A DNA stretch of 64,000 nt, from the NCBI GenBank assembly GCA_934778205.1, contig CAKVOD010000001.1:126769-190768 (forward strand), read 5' to 3'. The DNA comes from an uncultured Clostridia bacterium (GTDB lineage: Bacteria > Bacillota > Clostridia > Christensenellales > UBA1242). Positions 54,230 to 54,700 of the stretch are shown one piece after another; within the stretch, counting starts at the first letter, position 1, and every line of letters starts with the position of its first letter. A program made the position numbers and the translations under genes. The notes under the pieces are model-generated. The model ran no database searches. It was not told where the DNA came from and saw nothing but the letters and a program-made list of their open reading frames with translations.

Positions 54230-54700
54230 ATATGTACTTGCTATATTATAAATACTTAAAATATAATCACCTAATATATTGTAAGTACTTACACATAAGT
54301 ATATAATATATCATAAGTACTTAAATTATTAATACTTACTATATAATTAGTACTTAAATTATTAGTACTCACTATATAGTCTGTATTTAAATTAAAAAAA
54401 AACTTTCTATGTAAAAAGTACAAAATTTAATAAGTACATTATATATATTAAGAGTTTATATTAAAAGTACTATTAAGTTATTAAGTACATATATAATAAT
54501 TTCTTTCTATATTGTCCGTACTTATTTATTAGTACTTTCTATATTGTCCGTACTTATATATAAATTTTTTTATTTTATTAATTTTATTTATACTAATTAT
54601 TATTATTACTAAATTAATAATTAGGGTATACATATAAATATTTTCTATATATATAGTACTTATAATCACGTGCACGCTAACTAAATATTAAGTACTAAAC
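54230..54700. repeat. AT-rich core with eight exact AGTACT palindromes plus about six GTAC-containing variants, and an internal 22-bp direct repeat
   Basis: AGTACT occurs at 54284, 54316, 54349, 54364, 54466, 54531, 54655 and 54691. TTTCTATATTGTCCGTACTTAT is repeated at about 54503 and 54536. Confidence 0.8.

Follow-up and report, generated by a model that had tools for sequence, protein, structure and literature searches.

Arrays of an operator-like palindrome with an AGTACT core in hypervariable inserts beside the chromosomal origin of an uncultured Clostridia lineage

Introduction

In Escherichia coli, clusters of the short palindrome GATC are bound by SeqA at oriC and at the dnaA promoter. 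Plasmid centromeres (parC of R1 or pSK41, sopC of F) are tandem arrays of binding repeats beside a promoter, which support a multi-dimer nucleoprotein complex, and the E. coli SlmA-binding site GTGAGTACTCAC is a palindrome with an AGTACT core, dispersed singly and bound by a dimeric helix-turn-helix protein of the TetR family. Here we describe arrays of the palindrome TWAGTACTWA next to the replication origin in a 64-kb stretch of contig CAKVOD010000001.1, from an uncultured Clostridia bacterium (this whole stretch is referred to as the window; positions are counted from its first letter). The nearest named relatives are Christensenellales-like assemblies with DnaA identities of at most 60%, and “gut metagenome” is the source label on the contig of one close relative. 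The closest analogue of these arrays is found in phages: the origin-binding protein gp38 of Bacillus phage SPP1 binds direct repeats within gene 38, beside an unwinding element rich in adenine and thymine (AT) (PMC6316719).

The iterons of phage initiator genes (TP901-1 rep class; SPP1 gp38/oriL; PMC6316719) resemble the arrays in being short direct repeats of 15-19-bp period at or within AT-rich DNA, and several phage contigs have the identical TWAGTACTWA repeat core; unlike them, the arrays described here are non-coding, chromosomal, located between oriC and dnaA, hypervariable and up to 23 sites long. Fixed-period tandem repeats beside AT-rich DNA, as expected of iterons, are present (17-bp lattice, 33- or 34-bp units, 17% guanine plus cytosine, GC). 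A cognate initiator gene does not adjoin them: the flanks hold dnaN, dnaA, mnmE and so on, with no HTH_36/DnaB_2 gene in the scanned open reading frames (ORFs) of the window. As with GATC and SeqA, a short palindrome is strongly over-represented at the origin beside the dnaA promoter, although the motif here extends over 10-18 bp, follows a 17-bp lattice, is absent as arrays from a sister lineage, and no methyltransferase was found in the 64-kb window. Plasmid centromeres share the tandem short repeats next to a promoter, binding being putative here, but no ParR-, ParG- or SopB-like gene is associated with the arrays and the chromosomal parS is separate. SlmA sites differ in their flanks (GTGAG...CTCAC, against TWAG...CTWA here) and in standing singly, without forming origin arrays, and the window showed no gene of the TetR family. 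Repeat arrays of iteron- or operator-like type are known in kind, and it is the location beside a chromosomal origin that is unusual.

Enrichment and Periodicity of the Palindrome

The motif is concentrated in two unstranded tracts:

Tract 1, 52809-52967: AT-rich; four exact AGTACT sites (52833, 52866, 52908, 52948); about 70-230 bp upstream of the predicted dnaN promoter.
Tract 2, 54188-54716: 17% GC; eight exact AGTACT sites (54284, 54316, 54349, 54364, 54466, 54531, 54655, 54691) and at least six GTAC-core or one-mismatch variants on a lattice of about 16.5-17 bp.

Every AGTACT coordinate given by the first-pass annotation, made from the letters of the window, proved correct, including the single copies at 50982, 53632 and 47551 (the last is without palindromic flanks and looks incidental), and its approximately six additional GTAC cores in tract 2 were found to be exactly six (54234, 54418, 54434, 54485, 54518, 54550). 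The window contains 23 AGTACT sites, whereas dinucleotide-preserving shuffles contain 7.74 ± 2.89 and none out of 100 reached 23. Together, the tracts (688 bp, GC fraction 0.17-0.20) hold 12 sites, an enrichment of about 70- to 100-fold over the 0.12-0.18 expected from Markov models (order 0-2) for which the remaining AT-rich DNA of the window served as training set. It had also been considered that AGTACT might be equally common in all AT-rich DNA. Within the window this is not so: the 12 other stretches below 20-22% GC (2458 bp) contain a single AGTACT, at 61515, and the motif is therefore no general property of AT-rich DNA there. Part of the excess is accounted for by tandem duplication, since at 54228-54377 Tandem Repeats Finder detects 4.6 copies of a 33-bp unit.

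Alignment of the sites gives T-W-A-G-T-A-C-T-W-A, a 10-bp palindrome, with the same position matrix in the window and in the related contig L085. One-mismatch versions (AATACT, AGTATA, TGTACT) occupy the gaps between exact sites and, with these included, tract 2 begins with about 10 consecutive sites spaced by about 16.5 bp. Pooled over five loci (the window, a divergent strain and three other lineages), the distances between exact sites cluster at 15-18, 31-36, 48-54, 65-71, 80-89 and 99-105 bp, that is, on a 17-bp lattice; the periods reported by Tandem Repeats Finder are 33, 15 and 18 bp, with a unit of 33 bp (15+18) in the window and of 34 bp (16+18) in L248. The tracts, and the corresponding inserts of L135 and L139, contain short overlapping ORFs only, none of them credible in the tracts, and Rfam searches with a permissive E-value gave nothing credible at 50000-56000 or 61200-61740.

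Insert Boundaries and Distribution Among Relatives

The surroundings of the tracts, in which dnaN and dnaA are separated by 2298 bp, are arranged as follows:

jag, yidC, rnpA and rpmH, minus strand: first block in the origin gene order.
DnaA-box cluster 1, 50833-51146: followed by a set of 98-nt repeat elements.
dnaN, 51570-52688, minus strand; predicted promoter 52738-52710, minus strand.
Promoter-like TTGACT-16-TATAAT, 53699-53726, plus strand: conserved; kept in L135, L137 and L248.
AT-rich hairpin TAGAATTTAtttttATAAATTCTA, 53760-53783, plus strand: left boundary of the insert; kept in L135, L137 and L248.
Insert relative to L137, 53784-54951 (about 1.16 kb): left array of 98-nt elements, tract 2, right inverted array of 98-nt elements.
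dnaA promoter-like TTGACT-17-TATACT, 54952-54980, plus strand: ends 6 nt short of the ATG at 54987; bounds the insert on the right.
dnaA, 54987-56342, plus strand: followed by mnmE, mnmG, soj and spo0J.

Of the contigs with an identical DnaA, L082 and L083 are identical to the window in the origin region, and L081 and L084 represent a diverged strain. The more distant members of the genus, listed by the identity of their DnaA, are:

L248, 97.3%: 16 AGTACT in the 1446 bp upstream of dnaA, 15 of them within about 560 bp.
L137 and L138, 96.0%: no AGTACT in an 893-bp dnaN-dnaA spacer, with the gene order of the window.
L139 and L250, 94.7%: 14 and 13 AGTACT in spacers of about 2.6 kb.
L135, 94.2%: 23 AGTACT in a 2836-bp spacer.
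L085, 92%: seven AGTACT in the 1362 bp between dnaA and the upstream contig end.

Arrays are thus found at one locus in three other congeneric lineages besides that of the window (7-23 sites), and they cannot be aligned. The arrays of L135, L139, L250 and L248 have lengths and repeat patterns other than those of the window, and L085, whose dnaA gene is 79.5% identical to the window's in DNA, gives only weak, repeat-level similarity upstream by blastn. More distant relatives (L086-L089, DnaA 83% identical, gene order dnaA, dnaN, rpmH) are without arrays. Contigs frequently break within the arrays (L084, L085, L136, L248, L249, L251).

The array-free L137 shows the uninterrupted order: a conserved oriC core, with a DnaA box and, after it, about 110 bp of AT-rich DNA, is followed by TTGACT-16-TATAAT and by the conserved hairpin TAGAATTTA...TAAATTCTA; after only 13 nt comes the dnaA promoter-like site (TTGACT-17-TATACT), itself 6 nt from the ATG. 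Between this hairpin and this promoter L135 carries about 2.3 kb and L248 an insert with the window's architecture, so that array size ranges from 0 to 2.3 kb across lineages. Tract 1 is missing in L135, and L137 keeps homologous AT-rich DNA there, devoid of AGTACT. Judged from these alignments, the tracts are inserts which adjoin the conserved oriC core and lie outside it. The inserts of L135 and L139 also hold, in the middle of the arrays, an island of about 360 bp of higher GC (L135 6650-7010, L139 about 6995-7355), 99-100% identical between both, with no credible ORF and absent from the window.

Tract 2 is bracketed by two runs of the 98-nt elements in inverted orientation, whose arms are 80-89% complementary. 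These elements, of about 98 nt, form a dispersed family with more than 20 full or partial copies in the 64 kb, each ending in a GC-rich hairpin (e.g., GCGGGGCTATCCCCGC). They usually occur as tandem runs of two or three right after gene ends, resembling repetitive extragenic palindromes or bacterial interspersed mosaic elements (REP/BIME); they have no Rfam match and their copy number varies among strains. The runs are:

Up to 51578: 7640-7900, 35673-35941, 47048-47170, 47699-47808, 51277-51578.
From 53136 on: 53136-53377, 53784-54128, 54730-54952, 56337-56490, 58812-59038.

A Longer Palindrome at Conserved Single Sites

Apart from the minimal TWAGTACTWA of the arrays, a long form of 14 bp, GTTAAGTACTTAAC, can be recognized, the full form being about TAGTTAAGTACTTAACTA. 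When GTTAAGTACTTAAC was scanned with up to two mismatches, no match appeared in positions 1-50000 of the window. The sites of the long form and its relatives are:

GTTTAGTACTTAAC, 50978-50991: between the DnaA boxes of cluster 1.
ATTAAGTACTTTAC, 53628-53641: in the conserved oriC core, about 40 bp from DnaA box 53587-53595.
ATTAAGTACTAAAC, 54687-54700: right edge of tract 2; GTTAAGTACTAAAC in L081.
Perfect 36-bp palindrome, 61500-61535: upstream of soj/parA; its centre is an exact GTTAAGTACTTAAC at 61511.
Half-site TAGTTAAGTA, 63751-63764, plus strand: parB-greA spacer.
Near-consensus GTTAAGTATTAAAC and GTTAAGTATTTAAT, L245 12564 and 12588: just past the window end, upstream of greA.

Several of these sites are conserved at orthologous positions. 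The one at 50978 matches L135 and L139, together with its immediate flanks, at 19 of 20 positions, forming a 20-bp conserved island in diverged surroundings; that at 53628 is GTTAAGTACTTTAC in L135 and L139, while AGAACT replaces AGTACT in L137. Upstream of soj, the 14-bp core is exact in L135, L139, L250 and even L086 (DnaA 83%), with variants in L085 (AGCACT at the centre) and L137 (GTTTAATACTTAAC). The half-site TAGTTAAGTA occurs exactly four times, always within 50.9-63.8 kb. Such footprint-like islands are the best evidence for a putative trans-acting factor. A further argument, that the joint loss of all sites in L137 would betray loss of the factor, was withdrawn: the GTTTAATACTTAAC found upstream of soj in L137 equals the variant upstream of greA in the window strain, and for this reason we do not claim that L137 lost the factor.

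A Putative Operator Amplified Into Arrays

The reading that we favour, tentatively and with somewhat less than even confidence, is that of an operator-like palindrome serving a putative dimeric protein of the genus, the core of which was amplified into dispensable, iteron-like arrays. A sequence-specific DNA-binding protein would recognize the TAGTTAAGTACTTAACTA-type palindrome, with AGTACT as its core, in two layers. The first would comprise the long-form single sites: the one between DnaA boxes, that of the oriC core, that found upstream of soj and that of the parB-greA spacer. The second would have arisen by tandem duplication of the core into the hypervariable AT-rich dnaN-dnaA inserts, with one site per approximately 17 bp; these inserts separate the oriC core from the dnaA promoter and, in the window's species, are present upstream of dnaN as well. 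The arrays between core and dnaA promoter might then load the protein in many copies, resulting in titration, sequestration or insulation, and selection, if any, would act on the number of sites and not on each of them.

Six observations weigh against this reading. Within a species, substitutions fall in 13 of 173 AGTACT core columns and in 117 of 1837 non-core tract columns; as cores change as fast as spacers, purifying selection on individual sites appears to be little or none. Half of the tract-2 sites (four out of eight) are altered in L081, to AGCACT, AGCGCT, AATATT and AATACT. The arrays are missing from L137 and L138 despite the matching gene order, and are consequently dispensable. Tandem duplication alone yields a lattice and an apparent enrichment. 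In viral contigs, control arrays of three sites number seven for ACTAGT, one for TCATGA and one for TGTACA, against nine for AGTACT; ACTAGT arrays being about as frequent, the array form is not special to AGTACT. Finally, no candidate binding protein was found in the window or in the relatives' loci, which is why a role as origin or nucleoid organizer is worded here as a proposal. Two small helix-turn-helix genes (31244-31558 and 41269-41547) were rejected as binders, no motif being present upstream of either, and so was, as a partner, an ORF of 165-168 amino acids after dnaA, whose presence is uncorrelated with the arrays.

The proposal of the first-pass annotation, that the tracts are arrays of sites for a dimeric protein, therefore holds in part: the palindrome, the lattice, its recurrence and the conserved islands fit it, and the protein itself was not found. 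Its suggestion of an origin role is weakened, as the tracts are hypervariable inserts beside the core with no sign of purifying selection on their sites. The annotation had named in advance, as an outcome speaking against it, the absence of the tracts from close relatives with the same origin genes, and such absence was found in L137 and L138 (DnaA 96%, no AGTACT in the 893-bp spacer).

Alternative Explanations

A neutral or selfish AT-rich minisatellite is possible, though doubtful. Units of 15-18 bp, containing AGTACT by accident, would be multiplied through slippage and unequal exchange; the tracts would serve no sequence-specific function, and repeat dynamics would produce the enrichment as a side effect. 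Turnover within species is certainly rapid. Between the window and L081 the flanks are 98-100% identical, against 84-94% in tract 2, with repeat elements rearranged; between L135 and L139 the flanks are 99-100% identical and the arrays 5-11% different, with insertions or deletions of hundreds of bp. The large copy-number differences, the overall within-species divergence of 5-12% next to flanks 99-100% identical, the repeat periods of 33, 15 and 18 bp, cores no better conserved than spacers, the loss of the tracts in L137 and the contigs broken within arrays are all as expected of a minisatellite. Nonetheless, the motif stays at high copy number in four species-level lineages with the same 10-bp core, although the arrays of L085 and the window are almost without blastn similarity, and within arrays (e.g., L135 6532-6583 and 7538-7590; also L248) the cores are constant while the spacers vary. 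A minisatellite would moreover leave unexplained the isolated long palindromes conserved at orthologous sites.

A more far-reaching version of the operator reading, which we consider unlikely, is an undescribed DNA-binding system of the origin domain, with the 14-18-bp palindromes and the arrays as its cis elements. A dedicated dimeric protein would first occupy the strong sites and then cover the arrays, tens of dimers in all, and would control the access of DnaA or RNA polymerase to the origin and the dnaA promoter, or anchor the origin, e.g., during sporulation (Spo0A is encoded in the window). The turnover of the arrays might then represent tuning, or a conflict with phage initiators that use the same iteron.

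It is quite unlikely that the tracts are or include the oriC unwinding element, or another easily melting structural element in which the palindrome is incidental. Of the five 60-bp windows with the lowest duplex stability anywhere in the 64 kb, four do fall in the tracts, the cumulative GC skew has its minimum at about 53-56 kb, and tract 1 lies between DnaA boxes 52778 and 53047. Low stability is thus present, but neither adjacency to DnaA boxes nor conservation among relatives: L137 lacks the arrays, L135 lacks tract 1, array size varies from 0 to 2.3 kb, and tract 2 and the DnaA box closest to it are about 600 bp apart, separated by a GC-rich repeat array. With DnaA boxes defined by the 9-mer TTATCCACA with up to one mismatch, none occurs inside either tract (further boxes are at 52778, 53047, 53436, 53551 and 53587), and with DnaA-trios defined as 3'-GAT-5' trinucleotide repeats abutting a DnaA box, reading of the tracts revealed no in-phase TAG/TAA run. 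The view of the first-pass annotation, that these are neither DnaA-trios nor a classical unwinding element, agrees with these results. A better candidate is the conserved AT-rich stretch of about 110 bp beside DnaA box 53587, and the unwinding element is probably located in the conserved core, at about 53600-53700.

The same palindrome is arrayed in other genomes, which raises a further alternative. A scan for three consecutive TWAGTACTWA with 15-19-bp spacing matched 88 loci in metagenome contigs and nine in viral contigs, mostly as exact tandem repeats, and a search for one protein family beside the metagenome arrays showed heterogeneous contexts (SmpB/transfer-messenger RNA loci, HTH_36 initiators, MarR and others). 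One context recurs, in phage contigs: arrays of 15-bp period lie inside genes of about 250 codons, whose products combine an N-terminal HTH_36 with a C-terminal, DnaD-like DnaB_2 domain, followed by a gene for a DnaC/IstB-like loader. One such protein (L235) shares 91% identity with the replication protein of Bacillus phage phBC6A52 and 40% with Rep of Lactococcus phage TP901-1. Because these arrays lie inside initiator genes, for which SPP1 gp38 offers a precedent (PMC6316719), the palindrome very probably serves one class of phage initiators as origin iteron. For the favoured reading, this is an independent precedent of the palindrome being arrayed as iterons that bind a protein. The tracts could accordingly be imagined as a relic or decoy of a mobile-element origin, with iterons for a TP901-1 Rep/DnaD-like initiator left by an integrated replicon or kept as titrating sites, and the rapid within-species divergence would suit an arms race; we hold this to be very unlikely. 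The iteron TTAGTACTTACTATA of L184 is identical to a unit in L081 and one base off window 54363-54377, a suggestive match, yet its improbability is only modest, the core having been set by the search pattern. Near the tracts there is no gene for an initiator, an integrase or any other mobile-element function, tract 2 had no blastn match in collections of plasmids and phages, and the isolated conserved sites in oriC and upstream of soj point instead to a host factor. Full-text literature searches for 10-14-mers returned chance occurrences only.

Two other arrays deserve mention in their own right. Bacillus phage SP-15 (KT624200.1) carries about 15 tandem ATAAGTACTTAT with 14-18-bp spacing (L101 3779-3990), in an unannotated intergenic region near the left end of its 222-kb genome, with a paired copy at L091 8636-8661. 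A lineage of about 49% GC has three to four copies of the 17-bp repeat TAGTTAGTACTTATGCC between smpB and the transfer-messenger RNA gene (L150 5711-5780), conserved at seven homologous metagenome loci (L144, L146, L152, L172, L174, L176, L198).

It is likewise very unlikely that the sites are methylation targets, an AGTACT-specific (ScaI-type) methyltransferase marking the origin for hemimethylated sequestration in the manner of GATC and SeqA. An exact 6-bp palindrome is indeed clustered next to oriC and the dnaA promoter, and the commonest lattice variants, AATACT and AGTATT, are the C-to-T products to be expected at a methylated C, which is weak evidence in an AT-rich genome; but a bare methylation target would need no 17-bp lattice and is rendered improbable by conservation beyond 6 bp (10 bp in arrays, 14-18 bp at isolated sites), by the substitutes AGCACT, AGCGCT and AATATT in L081, by the arrays missing in L137 and by the lack of DPPY or PCQ methyltransferase motifs in the window ORFs, a weak negative that covers 64 kb.

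Known motifs were discarded in turn: parS, a different 16-bp palindrome (TGTTNCACGTGAAACA) with four perfect copies elsewhere (63476-63656); the CIRCE/HrcA operator (TTAGCACTC-N9-GAGTGCTAA, upstream of groES/dnaK), with an arm resemblance, one base off, in TTAGTACTC at 54362 only, no N9 inverted partner and no heat-shock gene nearby; the LacI/cre-like TGTAAG..CTTACA, which fits site 54284 only; and arrays of sigma-70 promoters, whose scan gave 22 against 15.7 ± 3.8 in shuffles, no excess. The likenesses to a T7-type promoter (ACTCACTATA at 54368), the yeast mitochondrial promoter (ATATAAGTA) and the NrdR box, like those to CIRCE and LacI/cre, are put down to chance in AT-rich DNA, as none of them is kept from site to site.

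Other Features of the Origin Region

The genus has dnaN and the rpmH-rnpA-yidC-jag block in inverted orientation, upstream of dnaA (window 50506-54987), and the relatives with 83% DnaA identity have dnaA, dnaN and rpmH in order on a single strand (L086 7776-11442, L089 3949-7887). The orphan promoter at 53699-53726 and the hairpin at 53760-83 may, speculatively, be a former dnaN promoter, given that they occupy the place at which, in those relatives, the DnaA-box region gives way to dnaN. Only 6 nt separate the end of the dnaA promoter-like site (TTGACT-17-TATACT or TATAAT) from the ATG in the window (54952-54989), L085 (1350-1386), L086 (7740-7778), L135 (7965-8001) and L137 (7965-8003), which suggests a leaderless dnaA mRNA in all these lineages; the promoter spacer contains a DnaA box in L085 and L135.

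Four perfect parS sites (TGTTTCACGTGAAACA) at 63476, 63516, 63556 and 63656 (span 63476-63671; spacings of 40, 40 and 100 bp) lie directly 3' of spo0J/parB and open a 2.1-kb non-coding spacer before greA, which also has DnaA-box-like sites. At 63878-63937, about three copies of a tandem 19-bp repeat, AAATATAGTAAATTATATA, make up the segment with the lowest duplex stability anywhere in the window. A long inverted repeat, ACCCTCAAAAAGTGGGGGTA ... TACCCCCACTTTTTGAGGGT, conserved and enclosing a loop of about 60 nt (61374-61478), is found some 50 bp upstream of the palindrome near soj and recurs in L085 (about 6680-6765), L135 (about 13570-13660) and L137 (about 15235-15335); it has no credible Rfam match and could be a small RNA or what is left of a mobile element. 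At 34901-35674, 16 kb from the origin, lies the gene for Spo0A, whose product has a receiver domain and a Spo0A_C domain; the oriC core has the Spo0A-box-like sequences TGTCGAT and TTTCGAA, at about 53617 and 53665, and the dnaA-dnaN spacer of L086 has perfect TGTCGAA boxes.

Implications

Origin-proximal regulators are poorly known outside model organisms, Clostridia included, and this locus illustrates that strong enrichment of a motif at an origin does not make it part of the origin. If no protein binds the arrays, they would be a clear case of a hypervariable satellite tolerated beside a bacterial origin and repeatedly breaking metagenome assemblies. If a protein does bind them, the genus would offer a natural series of arrays, all placed at a single point between oriC core and dnaA promoter, from 0 in L137 through about 0.5 kb in the window to about 2 kb in L135, in which array effects on initiation and dnaA expression could be followed.

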